Assembly (NCBI GenBank): GCA_964407175.1
Contig: CAYOUK010000001.1
Location: 1 to 39,731, forward strand
Direction of reading: 5' to 3'
Length of the DNA: 39,731 nucleotides
Origin: an uncultured Muribaculaceae bacterium
Lineage (GTDB): Bacteria > Bacillota_I > Bacilli_A > RF39 > UBA660
In this document: positions 358 to 38,675 of the stretch, one piece after another
Numbering within the stretch: the stretch's first letter is position 1
Layout: each line of letters begins with the position of its first letter
Made by a program: the position numbers and the translations under genes
Notes under the pieces: model-generated
Seen by the model: only the letters and a program-made list of their open reading frames with translations
Databases searched by the model: none
What the model was told of the DNA's origin: nothing

Positions 358-694
358 GGGTAGTGCTATTACATTGGTTATTAGTGCAACTGTAGGGGAT
401 GAAAATTATACTTTTCAACCTGGAGACGTAGTCAGACTTTCTATAACTGAAAGAAAAAACGAAAACAAAGTGGTTTTAAGAAAAGATGTAGAGGTGAATG
501 AGGAAACTGAAGAGGTAGAAATGCCTTTATTATCAAGCGACACTAAAATTGGAGACATTATAAACAAAGAAGTAGTTTATTGGTTTGAGGTAGAACTTAA
601 CCCAGATACAGAACAATGTCAAACTATTATTGGTTATGATGCAGATGGTGCTAAAGAGTTTATTTTATACCCTGAAAGTGGTGTATCGAATTGA
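335..694 (+). CDS. hypothetical protein (acidic, beta-rich; tail-fibre cluster)
   Basis: The ORF track gives 326..694. ATG 335 has better spacing to AAGGA at 321-325. The stop overlaps the next start (TTGA). No motif recognised. Confidence 0.6.
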   Translation: MISIEVNRGSAITLVISATVGDENYTFQPGDVVRLSITERKNENKVVLRKDVEVNEETEEVEMPLLSSDTKIGDIINKEVVYWFEVELNPDTEQCQTIIGYDADGAKEFILYPESGVSN

Positions 695-1293
695 CAGAAA
701 AAATTGAAATCATAGGTTTTATAAAAGACAAAAATAATATCAAGGGTGCATTGAGTAGTAACCTAAATTACAATAATCTCAAGATCACAAGTGCTTATTA
801 TTTATTTAGAAGTAATGCTAGAAGCGATTCTATGAATGATATTATAGCTTGTTTTAAAGATATAACTAACTGCGACCATGCATTTGAATATAATGACGTG
901 GTTGATGCACCTTTATTTGATACAAGTTCATGCACTACTTTTAATAGTATGTTTAATGGGGCAAGTCATTTAAAATCATTGCCAGAATATGATATGTCTA
1001 ACGCAAAAGATGTGTCAAATTTTTGTAATGCGTGTTATCAATTAGAAAGTGTTCCTGCTTATAATTGGGGAAGTATAACGGACATGAATTGGTACAATTC
1101 TTTTACTGGATGCTCAGCATTAAGTGATGAAAGTCTTAATAATATAATGAAGTCTTTTAGTACTATGTCAAATATAGCAAGCAGTCAAAAAAGATTAATG
1201 TATGCAGGTTTGAGCGAAACTCAAGCAAACAGATGCACAGAATTGCCAAATTGGAGCATTTTAGAAAGCGATGGATGGCGAACAGGTTATTAG
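691..1293 (+). CDS. DUF285 / BspA-like leucine-rich-repeat protein
   Basis: TTG start coupled to the upstream stop. It has repeated units of about 26 aa of the MF-x-gC-x-L type (FNSMFNGASHLKSLPEYDMSNAKDVSNFCNACYQLESVP...SFTGCSALS). Confidence 0.6.
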   Translation: MTEKIEIIGFIKDKNNIKGALSSNLNYNNLKITSAYYLFRSNARSDSMNDIIACFKDITNCDHAFEYNDVVDAPLFDTSSCTTFNSMFNGASHLKSLPEYDMSNAKDVSNFCNACYQLESVPAYNWGSITDMNWYNSFTGCSALSDESLNNIMKSFSTMSNIASSQKRLMYAGLSETQANRCTELPNWSILESDGWRTGY

Positions 1294-1304
1294 AGGTGGT
1301 TTAG

Positions 1305-1589
1305 ATGATTAAAAAGAGAACAAAAATAGTCGGTCATATTAGTGGCGCAGTCGGGCCGAAAGGCGAAAATGGTTTTAGTCCTATAATTACCACCTCTGAA
1401 ACTCAAGATGGTTATAAAATAACTATTACTGATATAGAAGATACTGAAGAAATAGAACTATTCAATGGAAAAGTTAATCATGAAGATTTGAATAATCTAG
1501 ACTTTGAAAGTTCAGGACATACAGGTTTTCAAGAAGAAATGACACCTCTAACAAATTGGGAAATAGAAAGGATGTTTGAAAATGAGTAG
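1305..1589 (+). CDS. hypothetical protein with a short collagen-like G-x-x stretch (GAVGPKGENG)
   Basis: Strong RBS (GAGGTGG). Lies in the fibre cluster. A short Gly-X-Y run is typical of fibre N-termini. Confidence 0.55.
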   Translation: MIKKRTKIVGHISGAVGPKGENGFSPIITTSETQDGYKITITDIEDTEEIELFNGKVNHEDLNNLDFESSGHTGFQEEMTPLTNWEIERMFENE

Positions 1590-2061
1590 TATTAAATATA
1601 CTGATGATAATGGTCTATTATATCTTATTCAAAAGATTAAGACATTATTAGGCAACAAAGTAGATAAAGAAACAGGAAAAGGGCTTTCAACTAATGATTA
1701 TACTAATGCAGATAAAACAATAGTTACAGGAATAGATGGCAGAGTTACAACTCTAGAAAATGCAGGTTATCAAACTGCAGGAGACGTTCAAACACTTATT
1801 AATTCTAGTCTAGCATCAGTTATGACATATAAAGGCACGGTTGCAAATTATAGTGATCTACCTAGTTCTAATGTGGCAGTAGGTGATACTTATAACATAA
1901 CAAATGCTAGTCAGTATAACAATGCAGGAGATAACGCAACGTGGAATGGTACATCTTGGGATGTTTTAGGAAGCAATATAGATTTATCTAGTTATTTACA
2001 AGATAGTGATTTGGTGGCAATTACAAACGCAGAAATAGATACAATGTGGAATGGAAATTAG
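1582..2061 (+). CDS. tail-fibre-like protein
   Basis: The track ORF starts at TTG 1576; ATG 1582 is preferred. It carries the GKGLSTNDYT motif and a C-terminal GDTYNI...WNGTSWDVLG motif, both common in Firmicute phage fibre proteins. Confidence 0.6.
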   Translation: MSSIKYTDDNGLLYLIQKIKTLLGNKVDKETGKGLSTNDYTNADKTIVTGIDGRVTTLENAGYQTAGDVQTLINSSLASVMTYKGTVANYSDLPSSNVAVGDTYNITNASQYNNAGDNATWNGTSWDVLGSNIDLSSYLQDSDLVAITNAEIDTMWNGN

Positions 2062-2070
2062 GTGGTTTAA

Positions 2071-3204
2071 ATGAAATATTTAAACGGCACAGGAACGGAA
2101 CATCTAATTGATAAGATTAAAGATGATTTAGAGCTAAAGTATGATAAGACAGGTGGAGAAATATCAGGCAACGTCAAGATAGATGGAACACTAACACTAG
2201 ACATAGAAGATGAAGATTATGATAGTGGAATCACTTTTGATAAATCTTTAGACACTAATGTTGGAACAATATTATCTTTGAATGGTTATGCTAATAGTTC
2301 AGAGACTACTAATTATAGACCAATAATAAGAAATGTTGGAACACCAAATCAAAATTATGATGTAGCAAACAAAAAGTATGTAGATGATAATGTTATAGTT
2401 CCTAATTATTATCTAACATTATTAAATGCAGATGGCACGATAGATACAACATCTTCAACATTAAACTATAATACTGTGATTTCTAACTTAACAAATAGAA
2501 GTAAAGCTGATTACTTGGACATTATATGGGGAACAACTAGATTTTATGCAAAATGTATTGAAGTAACGGATGTAAACACAGGAGATTTAAAGTTTATAGG
2601 TGAAGTAGAATATCAAGGAATACAAAGATATATGGTGTTTACTTTAACACCTAACAACGTATTGACTACTACTAATATCATAACTTTTGAGACAATAAGC
2701 GATAAGGTTCAGAGTGTAGTTGCAAATAGTACAAGCCAAGCAAAATACCCTAGCGCAAAAGCAGTCTTTGATGAATTTCAAAGAAAACCAGTAGTTGTAT
2801 GGGAAAGCAGTACGCCAAGCGAATATTTAAAAGGAATACAAGCAAATATGTCAGCAAGCCCAGCATGGCAACTAACAGATTTAGATTTGACACCATTTAA
2901 AAGGATTAAAATCTATACTTGTGCTGGTAAGGGTTCAACCAATGCCAGTACAACGCCAGCAATAATTTTGGAAATGTCTTTAGATAGTAGAGCAGTATCA
3001 ACTGCATGGGGGAATAACTATGTTGCGTCTACTGTTATACAAAAATCAAATGACAACAACAGACTTGCGACATTAACATGTGCTGTATCAGCAGACAAGA
3101 CAAGTTTTGTTGTATTATGGCAAACAAGCCTTTATGGTACTGCTGCAACTTCAAACAACGATGTAAACGCAAACGTATTTATGATAGAGGGTTATTATGA
3201 TTAG
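2071..3204 (+). CDS. tail fibre / receptor-binding protein
   Basis: 377 aa with a strong RBS. The N-terminal VANKKYVDD fibre-anchor motif is followed by an S/T/N-rich beta region. Confidence 0.6.
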   Translation: MKYLNGTGTEHLIDKIKDDLELKYDKTGGEISGNVKIDGTLTLDIEDEDYDSGITFDKSLDTNVGTILSLNGYANSSETTNYRPIIRNVGTPNQNYDVANKKYVDDNVIVPNYYLTLLNADGTIDTTSSTLNYNTVISNLTNRSKADYLDIIWGTTRFYAKCIEVTDVNTGDLKFIGEVEYQGIQRYMVFTLTPNNVLTTTNIITFETISDKVQSVVANSTSQAKYPSAKAVFDEFQRKPVVVWESSTPSEYLKGIQANMSASPAWQLTDLDLTPFKRIKIYTCAGKGSTNASTTPAIILEMSLDSRAVSTAWGNNYVASTVIQKSNDNNRLATLTCAVSADKTSFVVLWQTSLYGTAATSNNDVNANVFMIEGYYD

Positions 3205-3213
3205 GAGGTATTT

Positions 3214-3849
3214 ATGTTAAGTATTAGAGAAAGACAAACATATTTAAAATATTTAGGGCTTTATAAAGATGATAAAGGCAATGACGCTAAAATAGATGGC
3301 ATTGAGGGGCGTTTTACTAAAAGAGGTTATAAGTTAATACAAGATAAGTATTTTACAAGAAAATCAAATGGTAAATATATCGATAGAGATGGCAAATATG
3401 GCAGGAATACTGATATGCTTTTAGTTAATGCCTATAATGTTAAGAAATATACAAAGAATTTTAGTTTGAGTGAGTTCAAATGTGGATGTAACACAAAATA
3501 TTGCACGGGTTACCCTGCATATTTGAATATCAACCTTTTAAGGAATTTACAAACTATGAGAAATAACTATGGTGCTATCACTATTACAAGCCCATTAAGA
3601 TGTAGTAAACATAATGCTAATATCGGTGGTGTAGCAGGTTCATATCATACAAAAGGAAAAGCACTAGACTTATATAATGTTAGATTTAGTTCTAGTTTCA
3701 CAAACAGGAAATATGCTATCGAAAAATGGTTATTATTACCAAAAGCAAATATGGCATATCAAAATGGTTATATGCATTATAAGGGAAAGAGTGTAACTGG
3801 TTATAATGCTCCTAAAATGGGTAATGTTATACACGTACAGGTAGATTAA
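3214..3849 (+). CDS. endolysin: PG_binding_1-like N-terminus plus peptidase M15A (zinc D-Ala-D-Ala carboxypeptidase-like) domain
   Basis: RERQTYLKYLGLY...IDGIEG resembles a peptidoglycan-binding domain. FSLSEFKC...GSYHTKGKALDL...HVQVD fits the H-x6-D...H metal site of M15A. Confidence 0.8.
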   Translation: MLSIRERQTYLKYLGLYKDDKGNDAKIDGIEGRFTKRGYKLIQDKYFTRKSNGKYIDRDGKYGRNTDMLLVNAYNVKKYTKNFSLSEFKCGCNTKYCTGYPAYLNINLLRNLQTMRNNYGAITITSPLRCSKHNANIGGVAGSYHTKGKALDLYNVRFSSSFTNRKYAIEKWLLLPKANMAYQNGYMHYKGKSVTGYNAPKMGNVIHVQVD

Positions 3850-4253
3850 TGGATCAAACCACCAAAGAATTAATATTCATCTATAAACCAAAAGGTATAG
3901 ACTGGATGAATTTCAAAATAACAAAAGAAAACCCTATGACATATCACCAGATAGAAAAAAGAGAACACGGTGGCAAAAAGACAGTAGATAATGGGGCGAT
4001 TCTAACTAGGAATAGTCATCAGTATTTACATCTTATTGAAAGCAAAGAAGATAAGTTATATTTTGCTATTAATCAGTTATTAAAATTAATCAATAAACAA
4101 AAAACTGCTCCAACACAGGAGCAAAGAGAAATGATGGACTTTTTATTAGATGAATTCTTTAAAGCCCACGAGCACGATAAGAACGCAAAAGGTAAGCCTT
4201 TAATAAAAGATAAGTATATTTTAAGAGGCGAACCATTGACAATGAGATATTAA
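3849..4253 (+). CDS. HNH-like protein (Cys-less H-N-H pattern)
   Basis: YHQIEKREHGGKKTVDNGAILTRNSHQYLH fits H..GG..N..L..H...H spacing. The start overlaps the endolysin stop (TAATG). Confidence 0.4.
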   Translation: MDQTTKELIFIYKPKGIDWMNFKITKENPMTYHQIEKREHGGKKTVDNGAILTRNSHQYLHLIESKEDKLYFAINQLLKLINKQKTAPTQEQREMMDFLLDEFFKAHEHDKNAKGKPLIKDKYILRGEPLTMRY

Positions 4254-4270
4254 TTTGCTATACTTTATAT

Positions 4271-4306
4271 GGTGTGAAAATTCAATGTTTTTCTCATTTT
4301 TACACC
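4271..4306 (+). terminator. hairpin downstream of the HNH-like gene
   Basis: ggtgtgaaaat / atttttacacc forms an 11-bp stem with one G-U pair, followed by a T-rich tract. Confidence 0.4.
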
Positions 4307-4347
4307 TAGTATTTTTCTAATATTTTTTTAGAAAACAAAATAACTCG

Positions 4348-4374
4348 TAGATGCCTATAAGGCATCTATTTTTT
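4348..4374. terminator. bidirectional rho-independent terminator between convergent genes
   Basis: tagatgcc-tataa-ggcatcta is an 8-bp stem with TTTTTT downstream on the + strand and a T-rich tract on the - strand. It overlaps the stop of the minus-strand HNH gene. Confidence 0.6.
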
Positions 4375-4683
4375 GTATCTTTGATTTTCTATAGACCATC
4401 CAGGGTATTTGCTTTTCATATAACCCGTGATTATCTCGAGTATTTCATCATGCTCTTTTTTAGTTCCAAAATCAAAACGCCTATGACACTTTAAAGGACT
4501 TAATTCAGTGCATAGAGTTACAATGTTAGTTTCTATGCCTAGACCACCATGAGCCCTTGATAGAATATGAGCGTTAGGCATTGCTTGGTAACTACCACAT
4601 ACCACACACCTATGTTTATCTCTTTCCCATACTTTACTTTTAACACTTTCAGATATGTCAAGTGCATTAGTTCTATTTGACAT
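4366..4683 (-). CDS. HNH endonuclease (small, stand-alone)
   Basis: CVVCGS...NAHILSRAHGGLGIETNIVTLC...CHRRFD is a classic CxxC / H-N-H / C..H zinc-finger nuclease motif. It has a GGAGG RBS and a possible own promoter (TTCACA-17-TAGTAT, 4742..4714). Confidence 0.75.
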   Translation of the reverse strand: MSNRTNALDISESVKSKVWERDKHRCVVCGSYQAMPNAHILSRAHGGLGIETNIVTLCTELSPLKCHRRFDFGTKKEHDEILEIITGYMKSKYPGWSIENQRYKK

Positions 4684-4907
4684 TTTCTATACCTCCAATT
4701 TTATACAATGGTTATACTATGATATTTTGATAATTATGTGAATTATTTGAATAGAATACTAGGAATTTACTAGCATATAAACTTATGATAATAAAAATAA
4801 AATACCGTACGGGTCACCAAATTGTATTCTAGAAGCCTTTATTTTAGGGGCTTCTTTAATTTTATACAATGATTTATACAATGAGATGACAACTCAAAAG
4901 AAAATTT
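4684..4907. other. attP-like / prophage junction region
   Basis: Non-coding tract next to int. It holds three exact TTATACAATG copies (4701, 4862, 4874), the palindrome CCGTACGG (4805..4812) and a hairpin agaagcc/ggcttct (4831..4855). Confidence 0.5.
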
Positions 4908-6032
4908 TTAATAAAAATCATCAGTAATGTTTGACACTTTTTTTCTAGAGTTAGTTGACACATTGCCATACACATCAATAGTAGTAGATATTTTAGAGTG
5001 CCCCATTGATTTCTCTAACACATACATATCAATGCCCTGTTCCATCATTAGAGTAGCAAAGGTGTGTCTTAAATCATACATTCTTATTTTTGGTACTCCT
5101 GCAAGTTCAATATAATGGTTGAAATGTTTTCTTAATGATACATCACTTATTTGTTTACCAGTTGATACACTTAACAATAAAGGTGTATCTTTTTTTATTT
5201 GGACGCCTATATTATTAGTTAAGAATTTTTTATATTCAAAAATCTCATTTAGGTATTTATCAGTTACAAATATATCTCTTTGTGCCATGGTGTTTTTTGA
5301 ATTGCCTTTTAATCGGTTCAAAGATGTGTCATATTCAATAGAATTTCTAATAGTGATGATTTTCTTGTTAAAGTCTATGTCGTTGAATGTGAGGGCTCGT
5401 AGTTCCCCTAGACGACATCCGAGTGATAACATTGATATAGTTAGTATCTTTATAAGTCTTGCTGATGGATCATTCAAGTTATTATTGAGCGTTTTAATGA
5501 ATCTATTTATATCATCTTGTAACCAATAATTAAGAATAGGTTTAGTGGTTTTTTCTTTAGTTATATAAAGAGCAGGTGATATGTCTAGATATTCATTTTT
5601 ACAACACCACGTGAAAAAGGCTTTTAACATCTTTAAAAGTTCGTTTTTTTCTTTAGTGGTTCTATTAATCGAGTTAAAAAATAAGATTAAGTCATTTTTA
5701 GATATTTGATTAATCTTATATTTTGAAAGTCTATGATATTCTATATTATAAAACATTTTCTTTTTCTTTAGAGTGTTATATGCCATTTTGTAAACGTGTT
5801 CGCACTCGTAAAGGTATTTATTATATAATTCTTCAAAAGATATATTAGATTTGTTTAATTGCTTGTTTGTGTAGCTATCTCTAACTTTTAAAGCAATATC
5901 AATAGAATATATCTTGTCGCCATTAAAACGTGATATGGTGCTATTAATCTTTGATATAGTGATTATATAATTCTTGTTTTTCTCGTGTTTATAGATATTC
6001 TGATAACGTGTTTTTTTGTAGTATTTTTCCAT
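4908..6032 (-). CDS. int: tyrosine recombinase / phage integrase
   Basis: 374 aa. The catalytic context is LGCRLGELRAL, YDLRHTFATLMM, MGHSKISTTIDVY. It sits at the prophage end beside the repressor. Confidence 0.9.
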   Translation of the reverse strand: MEKYYKKTRYQNIYKHEKNKNYIITISKINSTISRFNGDKIYSIDIALKVRDSYTNKQLNKSNISFEELYNKYLYECEHVYKMAYNTLKKKKMFYNIEYHRLSKYKINQISKNDLILFFNSINRTTKEKNELLKMLKAFFTWCCKNEYLDISPALYITKEKTTKPILNYWLQDDINRFIKTLNNNLNDPSARLIKILTISMLSLGCRLGELRALTFNDIDFNKKIITIRNSIEYDTSLNRLKGNSKNTMAQRDIFVTDKYLNEIFEYKKFLTNNIGVQIKKDTPLLLSVSTGKQISDVSLRKHFNHYIELAGVPKIRMYDLRHTFATLMMEQGIDMYVLEKSMGHSKISTTIDVYGNVSTNSRKKVSNITDDFY

Positions 6033-6059
6033 GGTGTTTTTCTCTTTTCTATTTTTTGA

Positions 6060-6299
6060 TTATTTTTGATATTTTTCCATTTGAGATATATCTTTTGTAA
6101 TAATATCATCCATAGAAATGTTTAAAAAGTTGCATATCAAATAAACATCTTTTACTATTGGTTGTCTTTCGCCTGTTTTCCATCTTTGAACTAGTGTTCT
6201 GTCTTTTTTTATCAAAGCACATAATGTTTTAATAGAGATCCTTTTTGTATTGATTAACCACTCTATATTTTTGGCAAATATTTTTTCATCATAATTCAT
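6060..6299 (-). CDS. XRE-family HTH repressor (CI-like, no peptidase domain)
   Basis: 79 aa with HTH ISIKTLCALIKKDRTLVQRWKTGERQP. It is transcribed divergently from the cro-like gene. Confidence 0.7.
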   Translation of the reverse strand: MNYDEKIFAKNIEWLINTKRISIKTLCALIKKDRTLVQRWKTGERQPIVKDVYLICNFLNISMDDIITKDISQMEKYQK

Positions 6300-6327
6300 T
6301 TATAAAACTCCTTTTTTTAACCCATAA

Positions 6328-6433
6328 GTTGTATTGTGATTTAATTATACAACACATTTTTTTGTAAAGCAAACACCAAAAATGTAAAAATAATATAAAA
6401 ATTGTTGACTTTAAGTCACAGACGTGATAATAT
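6328..6433. promoter_or_regulatory. divergent switch promoters with operator-like repeats
   Basis: Minus strand: TTGCTT (6372..6367), 17-nt spacer, TATAAT (6349..6344). Plus strand: TTGACT (6405..6410), 17-nt spacer, TG-n-TAATAT (6428..6433). The inverted repeat GTTGTAT/ATACAAC (6328..6353) overlaps the leftward -10. AAGTCACAGA (6413..6422) lies in the rightward spacer. Confidence 0.6.
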
Positions 6434-6457
6434 TAAATTACAAGAAGGGAGGAAGCT

Positions 6458-6664
6458 ATGGACAATCTAACAGTTTCAAGAAACATCAAAGCACAAAGAA
6501 TCATCAGAGGCTTATATCAATTAGATGTAGCAAAAATGTTAGGAATTAGCAAACAAACGTATATAAGAATAGAAACAAAGCCTTTTGAAATGCCAGTATG
6601 GAAATTAAAAAGGGTCGCAGATGTGTTAGGATGTAAATTAGATGACTTTTTTGTAGTACATTAA
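6458..6664 (+). CDS. Cro-like XRE-family HTH protein
   Basis: 68 aa with HTH LYQLDVAKMLGISKQTYIRIE and a strong RBS. It is the first rightward gene. Confidence 0.7.
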   Translation: MDNLTVSRNIKAQRIIRGLYQLDVAKMLGISKQTYIRIETKPFEMPVWKLKRVADVLGCKLDDFFVVH

Positions 6665-6729
6665 GTTCCTTATAGTCACATATTTTTTTGGAACGCGATG
6701 TGCCTAAAAGTCACAGAAAAGAGGTTTAA

Positions 6730-6903
6730 ATGTATAGCAAAGAAGATATATCAAACATACTAAATTGTAGTATTAGCAAAGCATACAACATCTTAAAAAA
6801 ATTACAAGAGATGTTAAAACAGGAACAACCTGAAATATTAATAATCAGAGGTAGAATACCGAAGAGTTATTTTGAAAAAAAAGTATTAGGAAAAGAGGTG
6901 TAA
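6730..6903 (+). CDS. small HTH protein, excisionase / DUF3173-like
   Basis: 57 aa and not in the ORF track. RBS is AGAGG. ISNILNCSISKAYNILKKL...RGRIPKSYFEKKVLG resembles Xis-like proteins of Firmicute mobile elements. Confidence 0.45.
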   Translation: MYSKEDISNILNCSISKAYNILKKLQEMLKQEQPEILIIRGRIPKSYFEKKVLGKEV

Positions 6904-6905
6904 TA

Positions 6906-7064
6906 ATGAGAAAAGTATTGAATATTGGTTTACTAATTTATGCAGTATTAGCATTTGGAGCAATGTTTACAAGAGATGCAGGAATATTCAGTAATGTAAT
7001 GACTTGGATGGTTCAAGTAGGACTTGCTTTCAGTTTAAAAGAATTAGTACTTATGGAGGGTTAA
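6906..7064 (+). CDS. small membrane protein (52 aa)
   Basis: Not in the ORF track. RBS is AGAGGTG. It has two hydrophobic segments. The repeat identity block ends inside this gene at 6933. Confidence 0.5.
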   Translation: MRKVLNIGLLIYAVLAFGAMFTRDAGIFSNVMTWMVQVGLAFSLKELVLMEG

Positions 7065-7067
7065 TAT

Positions 7068-7544
7068 ATGGAAAATGGTTATGCACTAGCTCTTAACAAA
7101 TGGGCTTTAGATAAAAGTATAAAAAATGAGGTTGGTTTATTGATAATCTTATCAAGTTTAAGCGCAGAGAAAGGTTATTGCTATGCAAGTAACCAATATC
7201 TAGCAAATGTATTTGGAACTCACGAAAAAACCATATCAAGAAAACTAGGAAAATTAGAAGAAAAAAAATATCTAAAGATCCATTATGAAAAAAAGGGCTT
7301 TGAGATAACAAGAAGAGAGATTCGAGTAACAAATTTGTTACCCGTCCAGTTACAAAAATGTTACCCGTCCAGTAACAAAAATGTTACCTATAAAAATACA
7401 AGTATTAAAAATACAAGTAATAAAAATATAAATAATATATTACCTGAATGGTTTGATAAAAAAATTATAAGCGAAAAGTTAAGCAATGAAGAAAAAAAAG
7501 AAATGGAAATGTTATTAAAGGAGTTTAAGAGTGAAAAAAGTTGA
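7068..7544 (+). CDS. replication initiator, HTH (HTH_36 / DnaD-N-like), allele A
   Basis: WALDKSIKNEVGLL...EKGYCYASNQYLANVFGTHEKTISRKLGKLEEKKYL is typical of phage and plasmid initiators. Iterons are embedded in its 3' half. Confidence 0.6.
   Translation: MENGYALALNKWALDKSIKNEVGLLIILSSLSAEKGYCYASNQYLANVFGTHEKTISRKLGKLEEKKYLKIHYEKKGFEITRREIRVTNLLPVQLQKCYPSSNKNVTYKNTSIKNTSNKNINNILPEWFDKKIISEKLSNEEKKEMEMLLKEFKSEKS
7337..7419 (+). repeat. iterons (putative ori) inside the initiator gene
   Basis: GTTACCCGTCCAGT occurs at 7337 and 7360, with GTTACC at 7383 (23-bp period). AAAAATACAAGTA follows at 7392 and 7407 (15-bp period). Confidence 0.65.
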
Positions 7545-15547: not shown

Positions 15548-15551
15548 AACC

Positions 15552-15734
15552 GTGCCCGTATCTCTTATATACGTTTTACTCCTTAACGTATAAAAATAAT
15601 TAAGTTGCTAATACAAATAATCATTTTCATTCTGACAATAAAGATATGTTATCAAGGTTCACTAATTTTGACATAAATAATTACTTTTTTCATAGTAAAC
15701 ACCAATATACTATTAATCTTAAAGATACGGGCAC
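15552..15734 (+). repeat. 183-nt non-coding element bounded by a perfect 12-bp inverted repeat
   Basis: GTGCCCGTATCT (15552..15563) pairs with AGATACGGGCAC (15723..15734). An internal hairpin tatacgtt/aacgtata (15568..15592) has a CUCCU-containing loop. Confidence 0.7.
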
Positions 15735-15759
15735 AAAAATATTATAGGAGGTATATATC

Positions 15760-15834
15760 ATGGAATATATAGCAATTACGTTAATTGTATGTTTAACTTT
15801 AATCGCTCTTGCGATGATAGGAAAAAGCGAGTAA
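15760..15834 (+). CDS. 24-aa hydrophobic micro-ORF (MEYIAITLIVCLTLIALAMIGKSE)
   Basis: Not in the ORF track. Strong RBS AGGAGG with 9-nt spacing. It has a single predicted transmembrane segment and a charged tail, and ends 11 nt before the GT4 start. Confidence 0.45.
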   Translation: MEYIAITLIVCLTLIALAMIGKSE

Positions 15835-15845
15835 AAAGAGGGCAT

Positions 15846-16898
15846 ATGATAGAACATGCAAATATATTTTATTGTAAAGACATAAGTGAAATTGGTGGAG
15901 TTGAAACGTGGATATATGAGTTAGTCAAAAAATTTAAAGATTACGACATAGCAGTTGTATATAAAACAGGAAACATAAAACAACTACGAAGAATCAGGAA
16001 ATACTGCAAGACATATAAACACGACAAACAAATGATTAATTGTAAAGTGGCATTAATTAATTATGATACATCAATAATTGATTATATATGTGAAGAGGCA
16101 AAAATATATCAGGGAATTCATGCAGATTATGAAAACCCAGCATATACAATAAAACCTCCGACACATCCAAGAATAACAAGTTATATAGCGATAACAAAAT
16201 ACATCGAAGAAAGTTTTAAAAGAATAACAGGCAAGCAGAATGTTATTCAACTATATAACCCATTATCTATCGAAAAAAGAAAACCATTAGTATTAATAAG
16301 TGCAACAAGATTATCAAGAGTAAAAGGTAAAGAACGCATGGAAAAGTTAGGTCAAGCTCTCAACAAAGCAAAAATTGACTATATATGGTACGTGTTTACA
16401 AACGACAAAAAAGAGATAGATAATGAAAATATAATATACACGACACCTAGAATAGATTTAGGGTATTGGTTTGATCATGCAGATTATTTAGTACAATTAT
16501 CAGATACCGAGGGACTTTCTTATAGCATTAATGAGATGTTATACAGAAACAAGCCTGTAATAGTAACACCATTACCTTATTTGGATGAAATAGGTGTAAA
16601 AGACAATGTTAATGCTTACATCATGGAATTTGATTGTAGCAACATAGATGACATTGTTAAAAAGATTAAAAAAATACCAAAGTTTGAATTTAAGAAACTA
16701 AAAGACAACTATGAAAAACTCATATACAAAAGCAAAAGTCATTATGAAGAGGACTTAAAACAAATAGTAAAAATAAGGAGCAAACGCTCTTATAAGGACA
16801 TAGAACTAGGAAAACATTTGCCTAGAGGTCATGAATGGAGCGTATATGAAGAAAGAGCACAAGAGTTACTCGAAAAGAATTTAGTAGAAATAATATAA
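15846..16898 (+). CDS. glycosyltransferase, GT-B fold (GT4-like)
   Basis: N-terminal EIGGVETW and the E-x7-E motif SDTEGLSYSINEML. The track ORF starts at 15789 but overlaps the micro-ORF, so ATG 15846 is preferred. Confidence 0.75.
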   Translation: MIEHANIFYCKDISEIGGVETWIYELVKKFKDYDIAVVYKTGNIKQLRRIRKYCKTYKHDKQMINCKVALINYDTSIIDYICEEAKIYQGIHADYENPAYTIKPPTHPRITSYIAITKYIEESFKRITGKQNVIQLYNPLSIEKRKPLVLISATRLSRVKGKERMEKLGQALNKAKIDYIWYVFTNDKKEIDNENIIYTTPRIDLGYWFDHADYLVQLSDTEGLSYSINEMLYRNKPVIVTPLPYLDEIGVKDNVNAYIMEFDCSNIDDIVKKIKKIPKFEFKKLKDNYEKLIYKSKSHYEEDLKQIVKIRSKRSYKDIELGKHLPRGHEWSVYEERAQELLEKNLVEII

Positions 16899-16983
16899 AA
16901 ACAAGGGTCGCAAATAGAGGGAACGAGCGAACGTCTTATAAGGTCGTTGGAGGGTTGGCATGGCGTTTAAAAAAGGAGCAATT

Positions 16984-17589
16984 ATGATACCTAAAAAGAT
17001 TCATTATGTATGGTTAGGGCATGGCGAAAAAAGCGATAAAATAAAGCGTTGTATCGAAAGCTGGAAAAAATATATGCCAGATTATGAAATAGTAGAGTGG
17101 AATGAAGAAAACTTCGATATTAATTACAATGATTTTACTAGAGAAAGTTACAACAACAAAAAATATGCTTTTACTTCTGATGTTATAAGATTATATGCGT
17201 TATATACCGAGGGTGGAATTTATATGGATACTGATGTAGAAGTGTATAAGAGTTTAGATCCATTCTTAAATGAAGAGGCTTTTACTGGATTTGAAGATGT
17301 ACATTATCCAGTTACAGCAACATTAGGAGCTGAAAAAGGTAACCCAGTTATAAAAATGATGTTAGATTATTATAATTGCATAGACTTTAAAATGTATGAT
17401 GTATGGACTGATTATATTAAGTATCAAGAAACTAATACTTGCATAATGTCTAATATCTTAGAACTATTAGGAATAGATAGAGATAAAAATGAAGAACAAC
17501 ATATAAAACATTTTAGTGTATACCCTAGAAGTTATTTCTTTACAAAAGATGAGGGTTATACATGGCATAGTTTTACGGGAAGTTGGTAA
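16984..17589 (+). CDS. glycosyltransferase, GT32-like (DXD sugar-binding region)
   Basis: IPKKIHYVWLG...YAFTSDVIRLYALYTEGGIYMDTDVEV matches the Gly_transf_sug/Och1/TcdB-type motif. ATG 16984 follows AAGGAG, whereas the track start is 16960. Confidence 0.75.
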   Translation: MIPKKIHYVWLGHGEKSDKIKRCIESWKKYMPDYEIVEWNEENFDINYNDFTRESYNNKKYAFTSDVIRLYALYTEGGIYMDTDVEVYKSLDPFLNEEAFTGFEDVHYPVTATLGAEKGNPVIKMMLDYYNCIDFKMYDVWTDYIKYQETNTCIMSNILELLGIDRDKNEEQHIKHFSVYPRSYFFTKDEGYTWHSFTGSW

Positions 17590-17601: not shown

Positions 17602-17976
17602 GTGGCAAGTACAGTACCAAACAATGAAGCAACACAGTTTCAAGCAGGTGCAGAACAGGTAGAGATAGCAAGAAAAGGTGGAATAGCCAGTGGAGAAGCT
17701 AGAAGAGAAAATGCCATGATGCGTAAAACCCTAGAAATGATGCTAGAAAAGAAATATAAAGACCAGGGTACATATAAAGACAATGTGGCGCTTGGTTTAA
17801 TAGCCAATGCAATAGATAAGTCTAAAGGTGGTAACCCAGAGGCTTATAAAGTAATAGCTAAAATGCTTGGTGAGTTGGATGTAAACGAAGAAACAAAAGA
17901 AACTCCAAGTGTAACAATAAATGTAGTTAATAATGAAGAATTAGAAAAATATATGTATGAAAGCGAGGAAAAATAA
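17602..17976 (+). CDS. putative terminase small subunit (positional call)
   Basis: GTG start after AGAGGTG, 124 aa. It has a basic KGGIASGEARR motif and lies upstream of terminase large (TerL). Confidence 0.35.
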   Translation: MASTVPNNEATQFQAGAEQVEIARKGGIASGEARRENAMMRKTLEMMLEKKYKDQGTYKDNVALGLIANAIDKSKGGNPEAYKVIAKMLGELDVNEETKETPSVTINVVNNEELEKYMYESEEK

Positions 17977-18213
17977 ATGGAATTCATAAAACTAGGCAAA
18001 AGATGGTTAGTTAAAAATAGTGGTGGCAGAATAGTATCAGAAAAAGAAAAGCTAGAACTAGAAAATAAAGAGCTAGTATTAAAAGACATTAAATCTAATG
18101 ACTGCCAAAAAGAAACTACTAAAAAGATAAGCAAAAACAAAAAGAAAATAAAAGCACTTCAAGAAGAGGTGCAAGATGATATTATCGAAGAAGCAGATAC
18201 AATTAAGGAATGA
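17977..18213 (+). CDS. hypothetical lysine-rich protein
   Basis: 78 aa. It overlaps the TerL start by 38 nt. Confidence 0.45.
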   Translation: MEFIKLGKRWLVKNSGGRIVSEKEKLELENKELVLKDIKSNDCQKETTKKISKNKKKIKALQEEVQDDIIEEADTIKE

Positions 18214-19567
18214 TATAATAAGCCCTAATATACCTAACATAAGTGTATTGGGTTCGGTACAAAGTGGTAAAACTTATGATATATGTGGTGCATTAATAGA
18301 ATATGCTCAAGCCCTTAAAAACTATGAAAAACAAGAACGTGAAAAAGAGGGTTATATTGAAAGAGAATATGCAGGAGCTATTATAGGATGGACTACCGAT
18401 ACTATTAAATCTAATATAGTTGATAATATAGTAAACATACTTGAAAAGGAATATGGTTTTAGAAACGGTAAAGAGTATGTATTAAAGTACGGTCAACAGG
18501 ACAAGTATCTAGAAATATATAACATGAAGTTTTACTTTTTTGGGTTTAATAGCAAGTTATCGTTTAATAAGATACTTGGTAAGCCATTAATATTCGTTTG
18601 GTGCGATGAAAGTGCAAGGATATACACGCAGGGACAATTAAGAGAAAGTTATGATGAATTAATCGGTAGAATGATAAGTTATGCAGGGCATCCATATTAC
18701 AAGAGAATAGATAGTTTCAATGTAGAGGGTTCACAAAACCACCCTTACAAAAAAGTATATGTAGATGGTAACGAGTGGAAAAAGTATGTGTTCTACCCGT
18801 TTGATAACCCTGTATTAGATACAGAAGAAAAGATAAAACAAGTAGTAAACTCTTTTCCTGATGGTTCATTAAGAAAACAAAAGATATTTAATCAATGGGT
18901 GGTAGCAGAGGGAAAAGTCTTTAATCATATACCTAGGATGACTGAAGAAGAGCTAAAAGAAAAGTATGTTATAAGAGAAATAGGTATAGGGTGCGACTAT
19001 GGTAGTACAAACCCTACGACCTTTAGTGCAGTAGCACTAGCACAGAACCAAGAAACAAGATTATGGAATCTAGTTTTATTAGACAAGTATTATCATGATC
19101 CTAGCATAGAGGGTGATGTCCCTACTACTGAATACTATTCGGGGCAGTTAAAAGCATTTGTGGAGTACTTGCATAATAAATATAAGCATATACCTATCAA
19201 TACACTTGTTATAGATAGTGAGGCAAGTCATTTTAGTAACAGACTAACGGTTGATGGCGTAAGACATGAACTTGCTAAAAAGAATAATATAAGCGTGGAT
19301 GAAAGCGTCCAGTATATGCAAAGTTTATTCTATAAAGAGTTTCTAAAGATAATTGAGATGCCTCATATAAGATATTTTGTGAACAAAGAACCTGTATATG
19401 GGGGACATGATATAGGTCTAGAAGAACTAGAGAGTTATCATTATGACAAGCTAAAAAGTGAAAAAGAGGGCATAAACGCCTATGTTAAAGATTTCGACCA
19501 TTATGTTGATGGAACAAGATATATCATAATGGAGTTTATGTATACAGGGAGGGCTCCTGTAATATGA
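18176..19567 (+). CDS. terL: terminase large subunit
   Basis: Walker A GSVQSGKTY, Walker B-like IFVWCDE, and a C-terminal nuclease region (IGCDYGSTNPT...DSE...D). Resembles PBSX/SPP1-type TerL. Confidence 0.85.
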   Translation: MILSKKQIQLRNDIISPNIPNISVLGSVQSGKTYDICGALIEYAQALKNYEKQEREKEGYIEREYAGAIIGWTTDTIKSNIVDNIVNILEKEYGFRNGKEYVLKYGQQDKYLEIYNMKFYFFGFNSKLSFNKILGKPLIFVWCDESARIYTQGQLRESYDELIGRMISYAGHPYYKRIDSFNVEGSQNHPYKKVYVDGNEWKKYVFYPFDNPVLDTEEKIKQVVNSFPDGSLRKQKIFNQWVVAEGKVFNHIPRMTEEELKEKYVIREIGIGCDYGSTNPTTFSAVALAQNQETRLWNLVLLDKYYHDPSIEGDVPTTEYYSGQLKAFVEYLHNKYKHIPINTLVIDSEASHFSNRLTVDGVRHELAKKNNISVDESVQYMQSLFYKEFLKIIEMPHIRYFVNKEPVYGGHDIGLEELESYHYDKLKSEKEGINAYVKDFDHYVDGTRYIIMEFMYTGRAPVI

Positions 19568-23110: not shown

Positions 23111-23971
23111 ATGAATTATACACAATCAGGTGTTTATCAATTAGATTTACAAGGTGTTGCAAAAAGAATATATAACTCACTTCTTTATCGTTCAACATTT
23201 TATAAATTCTTAAACCCTAATTACATTGGAGAATTAAGAAACACAGGAACTCCAATGATAGAAGTATTAAAATCAGGAGATGCAACAGTAAATGTTAGAG
23301 AAACAAAAGAAATTACTACTGCATTAACTCCAGGTCTATTAGGTTATAGTTCAGTAAAAGTTGACTTAACTGATTTACCTATGGACTATTCTATTAGAAT
23401 ACCTGTACTAGTAGCAGGAACAAACTTTATTAATACACTAGAAGATGCTATGGACAAGAAAGACCAAGCAGTAGCAAGTGAAATCGATGCTTATGGTTTC
23501 GGAATGCTTGCAGAAGAAGTTACTGAAGAAGCTGAATGGGCTCCAGCAGACCAAGCAGGTTATATTAGTACATTAAATAGCCTAAAAGCAACTCTATTCA
23601 ATAACAATGTTTATGAAGATTATAGACTAGGACTTGCTGCAACTGAATATGCTAGTTTATCATCAGCTTTAACATCTATTCTTAAATATGAAACTGAAGT
23701 TGGTGTTAAAGGTGTAGATATGGGAACAGTTGACGAAGCATACGGAGTTCAAATATTCCCTATCAACGATAGCGTAATATCAGGAGTTAAAGGTTACTTC
23801 TATAACCCACTAGCAGTAGTTGGTGATACATTCTTCGACAGCTTTGTAGAATACAATGGCAACTACCCAGGTTTCCCAGGTTACTATGTAATGGAAGGTA
23901 ACATTATGTTCGGAGCTAAAGTAGTAGAAGAAAAAGCTATTCTTAAATTAGTAGAAGAAGTATCAGCTTAA
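23111..23971 (+). CDS. major capsid protein
   Basis: 286 aa. Lies after the scaffold gene, has a strong RBS and uses high-expression-like codons. Confidence 0.75.
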   Translation: MNYTQSGVYQLDLQGVAKRIYNSLLYRSTFYKFLNPNYIGELRNTGTPMIEVLKSGDATVNVRETKEITTALTPGLLGYSSVKVDLTDLPMDYSIRIPVLVAGTNFINTLEDAMDKKDQAVASEIDAYGFGMLAEEVTEEAEWAPADQAGYISTLNSLKATLFNNNVYEDYRLGLAATEYASLSSALTSILKYETEVGVKGVDMGTVDEAYGVQIFPINDSVISGVKGYFYNPLAVVGDTFFDSFVEYNGNYPGFPGYYVMEGNIMFGAKVVEEKAILKLVEEVSA

Positions 23972-25435: not shown

Positions 25436-25909
25436 ATGAATTATTTTATTAATAATAGAGAGTTTATCAAAAACCTAGCTATTAATACAGGAACTTCTGA
25501 AACTCCAGTTTTTACAACTATATGCACTACTAGTGAAATCAATATAGATGTAGATCTAGAAACTAAAGATTTTTATGTATTCTGTGATGCATTACAAAGA
25601 AGAATAACAACAGGTGCAGCAATGGGTCTTTCAGGAACTCTTAAAATAGATGTTAATAATGCAGGTGTTACTGGTTTATTAGATAACATTCATACATTAC
25701 TAGCAGATGGTGAGATAGCTCAATTCAATAATCAGTTAATTCAATTTGATTTATTAACTGGTATAAGCAATGGCACACTTGAATATACAACTTATCAAGT
25801 TGCAACTAACTTAACACTAAGTGATTTAGGTGGTTCTTCTGAAGATGAGGGAGAATTCAGTTTCGAAATGCCATTCAATGGTAAAGGAACTGTTGTAACT
25901 TCTGCTTAA
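25436..25909 (+). CDS. major tail (tube) protein
   Basis: 157 aa with a strong RBS. It is the last gene before the tape measure and is followed by a terminator-like hairpin, as expected for a highly expressed gene. Confidence 0.65.
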   Translation: MNYFINNREFIKNLAINTGTSETPVFTTICTTSEINIDVDLETKDFYVFCDALQRRITTGAAMGLSGTLKIDVNNAGVTGLLDNIHTLLADGEIAQFNNQLIQFDLLTGISNGTLEYTTYQVATNLTLSDLGGSSEDEGEFSFEMPFNGKGTVVTSA

Positions 25910-25970: not shown

Positions 25971-27980
25971 ATGAATAATGCTGAAGTTCTAATTAAGTTT
26001 AAAGGCGACACTAAAGATGTAGACACTAAAGTTAAAAAATTAGGTTCAGATGTCAGCTCTAAGCTTAGTTCGGTAGCTAGTGGTGTAGGTAAAGCTTTCG
26101 GAACAATGGCAGTAGCAGCCACGGTTGCAATAGCTAAAGTTACTAAAGCAAGTGTAGAAGCCTATGCTCAATACGAACAGTTATATGGTGGGCTTGAATC
26201 TTTGTTCGGTGCTGGTTCTGAAGAGATGAAACGTATCTTAAAAACTAGCGAAAGTACCTTTAAGACTTTAACAATGTCGCAGAATGATTATCTAGAAGCA
26301 TTTGAGAAAACTTATTCTATTATGAAAAATGGAATGAGTGAAAATGGGGATGCTATTAGTTATACAAATAAGATGCTCCAAATATCAGCAGATTTATTCA
26401 ATACTTATGGTGGTTCTGTAGAAACTTATTCAAGTGCTATTAACTGGGCTTTAAAAGGTGTTTATTCATACGTAGATAACTTAAACATTGGTATTAAGGG
26501 TACTCAAGAGGGCTTTGTGGATGCTGCGAATAAGGCAGGAATACTTGGCAGACAAATATCTAGTGTTTCAGAATTAACTAACGATGAAATAATTGATGTA
26601 ATTGAGTATTATGCAGAGGCTGCAGGTGCTATGGGTAGAACTGCAAAAGAAGCTAGTACTACTATATTAGGTTCTATGAATATGATGAAAGCATCTTGGA
26701 AAGACTTGTTATCGGCATTTTCTAAGGGTGATGATTTATCAAAACCAATAGATAATTTTGTTAAGTCGGCAGAAACGTTTTTAGAGAACTTAATACCAGT
26801 GGTTGAAAGAACTTTAACAAGTATAGCACAGGCGCTTCCTAGACTGGTCGAAAAGATAGGAGCTAAATTGCCTAGCTTGTTAACAAATATATTGCCTAGT
26901 CTTATTCAGAGTATAGTGGCAGTTATCAATGCTATAGTAAAGGCTTTACCTACTTTAATCAAAGTTTTGTTACCACCTTTAATAGATGGTTTGATGATGA
27001 TTACAGAAGAGCTTATTAAAGTCTTGCCAGATGTTATTATCATGATAGCTGATATGTTGCCAACATTAATGCCTCAAATAGTGGACGCAATTTTAAGCAT
27101 CATACCTATATTAATCGAAAATTTACCTTTATTTATAGAGGCTGGTCTTAGATTAATGGGTGGTTTAATTATTGGTTTTTTATCAATAATACCAGAAATA
27201 GGTTTAAAAATAGCAGAGATAGTTACAAGTATTATAGAGGCATTCAAAGAATTGCCTGAAAAGACAAAAGAGGTTGCCAAAAATGCTTGGGAGGGCTTCA
27301 AAAAAGGTGTAGAAGAAGCAAAACAAGCAGTATTGAATAAAATGGCAGAGATAGGGCAGAAAATTATAAATAAAGTTAAGTCTATATTCGGCATACATTC
27401 ACCAAGCACCATATTTAGTGATGTGGGCAAGAATATAATGCAAGGCTTAATTAATGGTATAGCTTCTCTAGCAAATAAAGTAAAAGAAAAAGCATCTTCT
27501 GTCGTATCAGGAATTAAAGATGCGTTTAATGGCATTAAAGATAAAATGCATAATATAGGTTATAACGTATCACAGGGTCTTGGAAATGGTATAACTGCAG
27601 GTACTCAATGGGTTAAAAATAAAGTTTCTAGTTTAGTTGGAAATGTTACAAGCTTCATTAAAAAAGCATTCAAGATAGGTTCTCCTAGTAAGCTCATGGC
27701 ACAAGAGGTAGGTCAATGGATCCCTAAAGGTATCGCAGTAGGTATTACTGCCAATTCAGATGCAGTTAATAAGTCTATGGATGATATTCAAAAGCAAATT
27801 AGTATGTCTATGGGAATGTCTCCTCAAGTTGCAAATTCAACTGCATTAAATTATAGCCCTAATATCTCAATAAATAACCAAATTTCAATGAAACAAGACC
27901 CACTAGGCCAAATGGTTTCAAACATAAAAACGTTTAGTGGTGGGGCTAAAAACGACTATAACTATGGAGCGAGTGTATGA
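25971..27980 (+). CDS. tape measure protein
   Basis: 669 aa. Helical N-terminus, a long hydrophobic LP-rich central region (LPSLLTNILPSLIQ...LPTLMPQIVD) and a Gly-rich C-terminus. Confidence 0.85.
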   Translation: MNNAEVLIKFKGDTKDVDTKVKKLGSDVSSKLSSVASGVGKAFGTMAVAATVAIAKVTKASVEAYAQYEQLYGGLESLFGAGSEEMKRILKTSESTFKTLTMSQNDYLEAFEKTYSIMKNGMSENGDAISYTNKMLQISADLFNTYGGSVETYSSAINWALKGVYSYVDNLNIGIKGTQEGFVDAANKAGILGRQISSVSELTNDEIIDVIEYYAEAAGAMGRTAKEASTTILGSMNMMKASWKDLLSAFSKGDDLSKPIDNFVKSAETFLENLIPVVERTLTSIAQALPRLVEKIGAKLPSLLTNILPSLIQSIVAVINAIVKALPTLIKVLLPPLIDGLMMITEELIKVLPDVIIMIADMLPTLMPQIVDAILSIIPILIENLPLFIEAGLRLMGGLIIGFLSIIPEIGLKIAEIVTSIIEAFKELPEKTKEVAKNAWEGFKKGVEEAKQAVLNKMAEIGQKIINKVKSIFGIHSPSTIFSDVGKNIMQGLINGIASLANKVKEKASSVVSGIKDAFNGIKDKMHNIGYNVSQGLGNGITAGTQWVKNKVSSLVGNVTSFIKKAFKIGSPSKLMAQEVGQWIPKGIAVGITANSDAVNKSMDDIQKQISMSMGMSPQVANSTALNYSPNISINNQISMKQDPLGQMVSNIKTFSGGAKNDYNYGASV

Positions 27981-32327: not shown

Positions 32328-32705
32328 ATGGAAGTTTTAGAAGAACTAAGATTCACTCATACTTTCTGGGCTATCGTTTTACCATGTATATTAATGATAT
32401 TAGATATTATTACAGGTTATTACAACGCATGGGAAAAAAACGAAGTATCAAGCAAAAAGATGAGAGATGGTTTAGGCAAAAAACTTGCAGAGCTTATATA
32501 TATAGTAATAGGTATGTTAATCTCATGTGCCTTTGGTGTTAAAGGTATAGGGTTCTTCATATCAGGTTATGTAGTATATATGGAGCTTGTAAGCATTGCT
32601 GAAAATTGCAAAAAGTTAGGTGTTGAATTACCTAAAGAAGTAGCAGACAAATTAAATAATGATATAGAAAAGGATGATGGAAATGATATCAATAGAGGTG
32701 AATAG
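32328..32705 (+). CDS. holin (TcdE / phage_holin_4-like), complete copy
   Basis: 125 aa with three transmembrane helices and a charged C-terminus. RBS AGAGGG. Confidence 0.75.
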   Translation: MEVLEELRFTHTFWAIVLPCILMILDIITGYYNAWEKNEVSSKKMRDGLGKKLAELIYIVIGMLISCAFGVKGIGFFISGYVVYMELVSIAENCKKLGVELPKEVADKLNNDIEKDDGNDINRGE

Positions 32706-33042
32706 GGGTAGTGCTATTACATTGGTTATTAGTGCAACTGTAGGGGATGAAAATTATACTTTTCAACCTGGAGACGTAGTCAGACTTTCTATAACTGAAA
32801 GAAAAAACGAAAACAAAGTGGTTTTAAGAAAAGATGTAGAGGTGAATGAGGAAACTGAAGAGGTAGAAATGCCTTTATTATCAAGCGACACTAAAATTGG
32901 AGACATTATAAACAAAGAAGTAGTTTATTGGTTTGAGGTAGAACTTAACCCAGATACAGAACAATGTCAAACTATTATTGGTTATGATGCAGATGGTGCT
33001 AAAGAGTTTATTTTATACCCTGAAAGTGGTGTATCGAATTGA
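32683..33042 (+). CDS. hypothetical protein (copy of 335..694)
   Basis: Identical translation, offset 32,348. Confidence 0.6.
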   Translation: MISIEVNRGSAITLVISATVGDENYTFQPGDVVRLSITERKNENKVVLRKDVEVNEETEEVEMPLLSSDTKIGDIINKEVVYWFEVELNPDTEQCQTIIGYDADGAKEFILYPESGVSN

Positions 33043-33641: not shown

Positions 33642-33652
33642 AGGTGGTTTAG

Positions 33653-34409: not shown

Positions 34410-34418
34410 GTGGTTTAA

Positions 34419-35552: not shown

Positions 35553-35561
35553 GAGGTATTT

Positions 35562-36601: not shown

Positions 36602-36695
36602 TTTGCTATACTTTATATGGTGTGAAAATTCAATGTTTTTCTCATTTTTACACCTAGTATTTTTCTAATATTTTTTTAGAAAACAAAATAACTCG

Positions 36696-36722
36696 TAGAT
36701 GCCTATAAGGCATCTATTTTTT
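36696..36722. terminator. bidirectional terminator (copy of 4348..4374)
   Basis: Same hairpin tagatgcc/ggcatcta with T runs. Confidence 0.6.
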
Positions 36723-38380: not shown

Positions 38381-38407
38381 GGTGTTTTTCTCTTTTCTAT
38401 TTTTTGA

Positions 38408-38647: not shown

Positions 38648-38675
38648 TTATAAAACTCCTTTTTTTAACCCATAA

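Follow-up and report, generated by a model that had tools for sequence, protein, structure and literature searches.

Which molecule is modified by two adjacent glycosyltransferase (GT) genes that lie immediately upstream of the DNA-packaging genes of a phage? The question is raised by a stretch of 39,731 nucleotides (nt) on contig CAYOUK010000001.1 of assembly GCA_964407175.1, which is referred to as the window and represents the low-GC (31%) genome of an uncultured temperate siphophage from gut or rumen. It encodes a GT4-type and a GT32-type enzyme, and an earlier interpretation made without any database searches (the sequence-only reading) had concluded that the target of this pair could not be read from the sequence. 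Comparison with related phages narrowed the target further than this, because capsid and tail-tube proteins have a penultimate serine in common, which both lose in the absence of the GT genes. From these comparisons we consider it moderately probable that the pair is an O-glycosylation system for the penultimate serine at the C-termini of both proteins, in which the GT4-type enzyme would act first and the GT32-type enzyme would extend the glycan.

A penultimate serine was found at the end of all nine capsid protein families linked to GT modules and of all five tail-tube families examined, and the tail-tube protein often has the same ending as the capsid protein of the same phage. Given a background frequency of penultimate serine of 7.2% (counting one open reading frame, ORF, per cluster), its presence in nine of nine capsid families corresponds to p ~5e-11; seven of these families have distinct family matches or none, and the top PHROG of the L128 type (phrog_267) is common to family C68. 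The capsid endings are ...EEVSA in the window type and ...SASV in the L002 type (both without a family match), ...xSL or ...xSI in Pfam Phage_capsid (C16), ...TGSL in Phage_capsid_4 (C59), ...PSL in phrog_544 (C51), ...TVSA or ...GSY in phrog_422 (C68), ...TVSA in phrog_267 (L128), ...TSE in phrog_10 (C43), and ...IASV in the cultured Butyrivibrio phage Arawn. Paired endings of capsid and tail tube within one phage are ...EEVSA and ...VVTSA in the window, ...STSASV and ...PSSASV in L002, ...EGSVSL and ...TFTPSVSL in C16 phages (tail tube C27; e.g., L235), ...GSGSY and ...TITSN in L111, and ...KKIASV and ...EKVTSA in Arawn, where the second ending is that of the major tail protein. Among the relatives of the window proteins themselves, the C-terminal motif is kept in 35 of 38 capsid homologues, and the serine is penultimate in 119 of the 120 nearest cluster representatives of the tail-tube protein.

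The association with the GT genes was assessed in the C16 capsid family, restricted to capsids at least 75% identical and to loci with at least 7.5 kb of upstream flank. GT genes and serine motif occurred together in 26 loci and were both missing from four, with a single locus having only the GT genes and another only the motif (Fisher's exact p = 7e-4). In a neighbour-joining tree of the capsid core, GT-less phages arise independently at least twice from within GT-positive ones, with the serine gone from both proteins. The tail tube of the GT-less L234 ends in ...TFTPNV, compared to ...TFTPNVSL in its sisters, and its capsid in ...KPVNL and not in ...ATVPSL, whereas in the GT-less clade of L192, L193, and L202 the capsid ends in ...KPKTI or ...KPATI and the tail tube in ...TFTPTI or ...TFTPTL. 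In the GT-less L166, which belongs to the capsid family of the window, short deletions have removed the serine from both proteins (capsid ...KLVAGA, tail tube ...GTATAG). The motif is also absent from three cultured phages whose modules are related or comparable but which have no GT genes, namely Acutalibacter phage Fontainebleau, Staphylococcus phage 53, and Listeria phage 293. L212 is an exception, with a GT4 fragment only and a capsid ending in ...DDSGI.

Some further properties of these C-termini were observed in passing. L192, L193, and L202 have a threonine at the position where their GT-carrying relatives have the penultimate serine. In Staphylococcus phage 53 (L260), the capsid (3917-4891) and major tail proteins (6601-7182) both end in ...PGEV, unlike the serine ending. 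The tail-completion protein (phrog_3266; L129:9871-10356, cluster C20 elsewhere) ends in ...xSL or ...xSI in many GT-carrying phages and in ...IEYKE in GT-less relatives, and may be a third acceptor.

Both GT genes called by the sequence-only reading were recovered with the same boundaries (Table 1), and its assignments of fold and catalytic motif were upheld. The first ORF matches Pfam Glycos_transf_1 (PF00534) by a small margin (30.1 bits, cut-off 26.4), and its start (MIEH...) agrees with the homologue consensus. Of the two glutamates of the E-x7-E motif, E222 is present in all of 48 homologues and E230 in at least 90% of them. The AlphaFold2 model (predicted local distance difference test, pLDDT, 93) consists of a two-Rossmann GT-B fold and a small beta-rich C-terminal domain (residues ~300-350). 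It retrieved 304 PDB matches at E <= 1e-3, the best 50 of which are GT-B enzymes, mostly of the GT4 type; BshA, WbnH, SdgB, TarM, PglA, and GtfA are among the matches. The template modelling (TM) scores against PDB entries are low (~0.3), possibly due to domain orientation and the extra C-terminal domain, and the best PDB sequence match is 4pqg (E = 0.087), from the GtfA/GtfB and SdgA/SdgB group of protein-modifying enzymes. A cytoplasmic location of both enzymes, as supposed earlier, is consistent with the lack of a hydrophobic segment in either (maximum Kyte-Doolittle 19-mer scores of 0.81 and 0.47). Many GT4 homologues (P0009, P0012, P0019, P0025) bear a Lys-rich C-terminal tail (e.g., ...KKTTNTKKTSKK or ...KTTKKSKK), which might be a targeting or binding signal; the window enzyme has no such tail, and similar tails occur on other cassette enzymes (L210:8285-9352, L197:6582-7532).

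The second ORF matches Pfam Gly_transf_sug (PF04488) with 71.1 bits (cut-off 23), and both aspartates of its DXD motif are invariant in 40 homologues. Its GT-A model (pLDDT 93.5) has YeGT, SetA, PaTox, and Och1 as best structural matches (Foldseek E ~3e-8 for YeGT and SetA; E = 8e-7 and TMq 0.65 for Och1, 9n3s). GT32 enzymes of capsule and O-antigen loci and the fungal Och1 share the Pfam family, the invariant DXD motif, and the fold with the window enzyme, which at 201 amino acids (aa) is shorter than the polysaccharide-locus enzymes (~236-267 aa) and is encoded without lipid-carrier machinery. Homologues with 41-54% identity reside in chromosomal Wzx/Wzy-type polysaccharide loci of Clostridium, Paenibacillus, Bacteroides, and others, next to genes for EpsG polymerase, flippase, GT1, GT2, and DegT aminotransferase. 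This neighbourhood suggests that the enzyme transfers sugar onto sugar.

Both GT proteins have thousands of metagenomic relatives, many of them on contigs of 27-42 kb. A profile search for the GT4 protein among 1.8 billion proteins retrieved 360 representatives at E < 1e-30, and thus a small and discrete family that is found on phage-sized contigs; nearly all of these representatives include the C-terminal domain, and many have an N-terminal fusion of ~200 aa. The context of the GT4 gene was surveyed in 56 related loci, in which it almost always adjoins a second, exchangeable GT-A gene. The partner is a GT32 gene in 25 of them, usually in the order GT32 then GT4 (reversed in the window and in L002), and a gene for a GT2 protein of ~250 aa in 20; a third arrangement has an N-terminal GT2 fusion with an S-adenosylmethionine (SAM) methyltransferase gene alongside. 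The module occupies one of three slots, just upstream of HNH, terS, and TerL, between the minor capsid protein 2 and the scaffold and major capsid genes, or directly after the major capsid gene, and these slots recur across phages with unrelated terminases, portals, and capsids. The location just upstream of the packaging genes, which the sequence-only reading had pointed out, is one of these recurrent slots. L123 and L124 share the packaging module of the window and have GT2 plus GT4 in the same slot, while L090, also with a window-type packaging module, has GT32 plus GT4 ~2.6 kb further upstream. Arawn encodes the GT4 homologue only.

A comparable arrangement exists in mycobacteriophages. 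Che8 is reported to encode the GTs that glycosylate its capsid and tail tube (PMC12363180, PMC11256854, PMC13445384), and the systems of Che8 (gp108-110), Corndog, and Myrna resemble that of the window in consisting of soluble phage GTs, several per phage and sometimes accompanied by a methyltransferase (PMC12363180, PMC11256854). Che8 gp108-110 lie directly upstream of the HNH gene gp112, the genome end (cos), and the terminase, and thus in the same slot as the window pair. Capsid and major tail proteins of Che8 end in ...KTGS and ...SDGS and those of its relative Ramsey in ...PDGS and ...SDGS, which is a serine ending shared by two proteins as in the window, although serine is the last residue in Che8 and the penultimate one in the window. 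Freeman et al. (2023) reportedly placed the Che8 glycosylation sites at the C-termini. The Che8 enzymes (a GT2-methyltransferase fusion, a GT2-like, and a GT25-like protein) differ from the GT4 plus GT32 pair; BLASTP of the window GTs against gp108, gp109, and gp110 gave only E >= 0.3, the Pfam families differ, and no homology was found. The hosts belong to different phyla, Actinomycetota for Che8 and probably low-GC Bacillota for the window phage. The shared slot and serine endings in combination with unrelated enzymes suggest that the window module functions like the Che8 system without being a member of it.

In the proposed mechanism, the GT pair would be expressed with the packaging and head genes. 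In the infected cytoplasm, the GT4-type enzyme would use a nucleotide sugar to modify the hydroxyl group of the penultimate serine on capsid and tail tube, after which the metal-dependent GT32-type enzyme would extend this sugar by another one. The finished particle would bear a coat of short glycans on hundreds of exposed C-termini, with shielding from antibodies, adhesins, or proteases, or alternatively binding to gut mucus, as candidate benefits. The serine as acceptor, the order of the enzymes, the sugar identities, and the benefit are inferred parts of this scheme. That GT4 acts first is suggested by its being the constant partner in GT4-carrying modules, by its solitary occurrence in Arawn, and by the glycan-type cellular relatives of the GT32 enzyme. 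A similar division of labour is seen in GtfA/GtfB and SdgA/SdgB, the O-GlcNAc transferases of serine-rich surface proteins, where GT-B enzymes of the GT4 type start serine O-glycosylation in the cytoplasm and GT-A enzymes extend it; however, the acceptors there are long Ser-rich or Ser-Asp repeats and not a single C-terminal serine, and these enzymes carry extra domains absent from the window GT4, to which their similarity is weak.

Several observations weigh against this proposal. The window capsid and tail-tube proteins have no Pfam, PHROG, or PDB match, either as single sequences or as profiles, and no match among GenBank phages; their identity is taken from gene order only. Three window-type phages (L136, L153, L170) keep the ...SA ends with no GT gene within 8-10 kb upstream, although such a gene may be located further away, as in L090, and L251 and L252 keep the capsid ending ...ASL without a detected GT. 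Many motif-bearing phages carry GT2/GT8 cassettes without GT4, implying that the first-acting enzyme is not necessarily of the GT4 family and weakening the case for GT4 as the initiating enzyme. Module junctions commonly take up unrelated cargo genes, too. Structure prediction, which had been recommended as a source of acceptor clues, delivered the folds of both GTs (searches of PDB and BFVD) but did not separate acceptor types, and the GT4 fold search did not distinguish protein-acting from glycan-acting GT4 enzymes.

Targets other than the virion have to be weighed against the same data. The GTs could decorate a lipid-linked wall polymer of the host (teichoic acid or cell-wall polysaccharide) before its export and thereby change the phage receptor, resulting in superinfection exclusion or in progeny not being lost on cell debris. 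Such a role would suit a temperate phage with integrase and repressor, in whose lysogen the pair could be expressed from a promoter-like site in the 298-nt leader, and it would agree with the polysaccharide-locus affiliation of the closest cellular GT32 homologues and with the occurrence of TarM and TarP among the fold matches. TarM (GT4) and the prophage-encoded TarP (GT-A), which glycosylate staphylococcal wall teichoic acid, are soluble enzymes that need no flippase, and TarM, TarS, and TarP all act in the cytoplasm. The lack of a flippase therefore does not count against a wall-polymer target. The acceptor of TarM and TarP, poly-ribitol phosphate, differs from the proposed C-terminal serine, and the window GT4 lacks the DUF1975 domain inserted in TarM. 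Moreover, tarP adjoins an integrase gene, whereas the window pair (15846..17589) adjoins the terminase region, a long way from integrase and attachment site; among its relatives, the module is inside head modules or abuts the packaging genes without an intergenic gap. The hallmarks of Gtr-type conversion (GtrA flippase, GtrB bactoprenol GT, GtrC) were not found either, with no transmembrane segment in either GT and no membrane GT nearby; likewise, no gene for a flippase, a polymerase, or base hydroxymethylation was found in the early region. An envelope target would also leave the shared serine of capsid and tail tube, and its loss together with the GT genes, unexplained, and the GT4 family was found on phage-sized contigs and not in chromosomal wall loci. 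We thus regard modification of the host envelope as unlikely.

A different cytoplasmic target, either a small molecule or a host protein that is modified, as by toxin-type GT-A enzymes, for host takeover or anti-defence, would fit the protein-glycosylating toxins YeGT, SetA, PaTox, and TcdA as best solved-structure matches of the GT32 enzyme and the protein-acting SdgB and GtfA among the GT4 fold matches. The toxin matches are not specific, however, since the structures solved for this fold are predominantly those of toxin GTs. The sequence relatives of the GT32 enzyme are polysaccharide-locus enzymes, and the placement in the late operon or head module as well as the serine pattern point to virion proteins, which makes such a target quite improbable. 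Glucosylation of hydroxymethylated phage bases, as in T-even or TET-linked systems, might be suspected from the position of the pair next to the DNA-packaging genes and from the GT4 homologue of Arawn, which is located in the replication region beside the gene for single-stranded DNA-binding protein (SSB). Phage GT-A and GT-B enzymes are indeed known to modify 5-hydroxymethylcytosine (5hmC; bioRxiv 10.1101/2023.12.21.572611), and the T4 alpha- and beta-glucosyltransferases and TET-linked DNA GTs resemble the window enzymes as phage GTs that modify a phage component. These enzymes depend on 5-hydroxymethyl pyrimidines, but Pfam scans of the early-region ORFs of the window detected no ThyA-like hydroxymethylase, TET/5mYOX, or C5-methyltransferase, and no gene for making such bases was found in the window. 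The only DNA-modifying enzyme encoded there is an N6/N4 methylase, no base-hydroxymethylation genes lie beside the module in the 56 related loci, and the phage is temperate. A DNA target is highly improbable because the window has no hydroxymethyl-base pathway. The sequence-only reading had leaned towards a virion or DNA target over lysogenic conversion; the virion part of this view agrees with the serine pattern, and the DNA part is disfavoured.

If O-glycosylation of the penultimate serine is correct for the window phage, it may extend well beyond it. We judge it an evenly balanced question whether phages of gut and rumen Bacillota widely carry an unrecognised virion O-glycosylation, in which capsid, tail tube, and in many cases the tail-completion protein would offer a -Ser-x-COOH tag as acceptor, GT4- or GT2-type enzymes would be the starters, and fast-swapping cassettes of GT32, GT2, GT8, DUF4422, UDP-galactopyranose mutase, nucleotidyltransferase, and methyltransferase genes would create phage 'serotypes', much as O-antigen loci do in bacteria. 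To our knowledge, phage-particle glycosylation has been demonstrated experimentally in actinobacteriophages only. Freeman et al. (2023) reportedly saw little evidence of it outside this group. Our literature search, the results of which were partly swamped by papers on eukaryotic viruses, yielded no paper describing glycosylated virions in gut Bacillota phages. If the proposal holds, a large group of gut phages would join the mycobacterial phages in glycosylating their particles, and thousands of uncultured phages from gut and rumen would have heads and tails covered in variable glycans, with a bearing on mucus persistence, evasion of antibodies and lectins, recognition by bacterial defences, and therapeutic phage engineering. 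It would also yield a simple sequence rule, that is a GT cassette combined with a penultimate serine on both capsid and tail tube, which makes the question testable in the cultured phage Arawn.

Highly variable glycan cassettes were observed between the minor capsid and scaffold genes of a related phage group (L204:7104-8865, L210:6643-9352, L194:6826-9195, L197:5456-7532), with genes for a GT2 of 340-370 aa, GT8, DUF4422, UDP-galactopyranose mutase, a MobA-like nucleotidyltransferase, and a GIY-YIG endonuclease. The mutase implies galactofuranose.

Table 1. Coordinates of the glycosyltransferase module, the proposed acceptors, and other features of the window.
Feature	Position	Strand	Remarks
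Tyrosine integrase	4908..6032	minus	
Helix-turn-helix (HTH) repressor	6060..6299		
N6/N4 DNA methylase, 484 aa	11916..13370		Pfam
Intergenic 'leader' before the GT genes, 298 nt	15548..15845	+	
Inverted-repeat arms in leader	15552-15570 and 15716-15734		19 nt, imperfect, enclosing 145 nt
Sigma70-like site in leader	15668-15696		TTGACA-17-CATAGT
Hydrophobic mini-ORF, 24 codons	15760..15834	+	MEYIAITLIVCLTLIALAMIGKSE; strong Shine-Dalgarno GGAGG ahead
GT-B, GT4-type retaining glycosyltransferase, 350 aa	15846..16898	+	Pfam, homologue alignment, AlphaFold2
E-x7-E motif of GT4-type enzyme	16509..16535	+	E222-GLSYSIN-E230
GC-rich spacer, 85 nt	16899..16983	+	Carries ribosome-binding site of second GT gene
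GT-A, GT32-type (Gly_transf_sug) retaining glycosyltransferase, 201 aa	16984..17589	+	
DXD motif of GT32-type enzyme	17227..17235	+	D82-T83-D84
First gene after GT pair, 12 nt downstream	17602..17976	+	Small-terminase position; phrog_2412, function unknown
Terminase large subunit	18176..19567	+	phrog_2, E = 6e-24
Major capsid protein, by position	23111..23971	+	After scaffold, before head-tail adaptor; ends ...LKLVEEVSA
Proposed capsid acceptor Ser285	23963-23965		Codon
Tail-tube protein, by position	25436..25909	+	Immediately before tape measure gene; ends ...GKGTVVTSA
Proposed tail-tube acceptor Ser156	25901-25903		Codon
Tape measure protein	25971..27980		

The spacer between the two GT genes is unusually GC-rich, as had been remarked before, with 45.9% G + C compared to a mean of 31.3% (sd 5.1) for the window; only 109 of 32,348 intervals of 85 nt reach this value (top 0.34%). 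In GT pairs homologous to that of the window, the genes are ~6-10 nt apart. A structured RNA or riboswitch was rejected as an explanation (fold z = +1.0, no Rfam match), and descent of the spacer from a decayed Lys-rich C-terminal tail, as present in the GT4 homologues, was unsupported. The existence of a separate leader upstream of the GT genes was confirmed, too. It can form a long-range stem (minimum free energy z = -3.74) and contains one sigma70-like site, which is no more than in shuffled sequence. Stem and mini-ORF are absent from L123, the sole relative examined in this respect, where the GT genes abut their neighbours.

Besides the features listed in Table 1, early genes of the window encode DnaD-like, ExoX-like, SSB, and NinB-like proteins; a portal, a MuF-like minor head protein, and an M15 peptidase as endolysin were also assigned, and no tRNA genes were found in the window. 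Positions 1..6932 recur at 32349..39280 with one mismatch, indicating a genome unit of 32,348 bp. The following segment (39281..39731) is a diverged variant of the DnaD-like early gene at 6933..7383, with ~70-85% identity by eye and with indels. The end repeat and the diverged second copy suggest a concatemer, two related prophages in tandem, or the joining of two variants during assembly. A nucleotide search with the GT region gave no match among GenBank phages; the closest genome-binned copies are in metagenome-assembled genomes of Bacilli and Coprobacillaceae, and the host of the phage is probably a low-GC member of the Bacillota.

Other candidate relationships were discarded. Profile-profile comparison showed no relation of the window tail-tube family to a Phage_TTP_12 protein, and a large homology search with this family retrieved only unnamed proteins. 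A 484-aa ORF next to the GT module of L124 has only weak local similarity to the window methylase of the same length (33% over 69 aa, E = 1e-4). The Pfam match of the latter spans residues 29-456, compared to a model of only 221 positions, so that large insertions in its catalytic domain seem likely.

Arawn (L001:6623-7000) and Fontainebleau (L258:674-1021) each have an early-region gene for a nucleoside 2-deoxyribosyltransferase- or 'CMP glycosidase'-type protein; in Arawn, this gene is two genes upstream of the GT4 homologue. In L159:10001-11150, L248:1789-2985, and L249:5587-6783, the major capsid match extends ~300 nt beyond the query length, which suggests an insertion, possibly an intron, intein, or mobile element. 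The tape measure protein of the window ends in ...YGASV.

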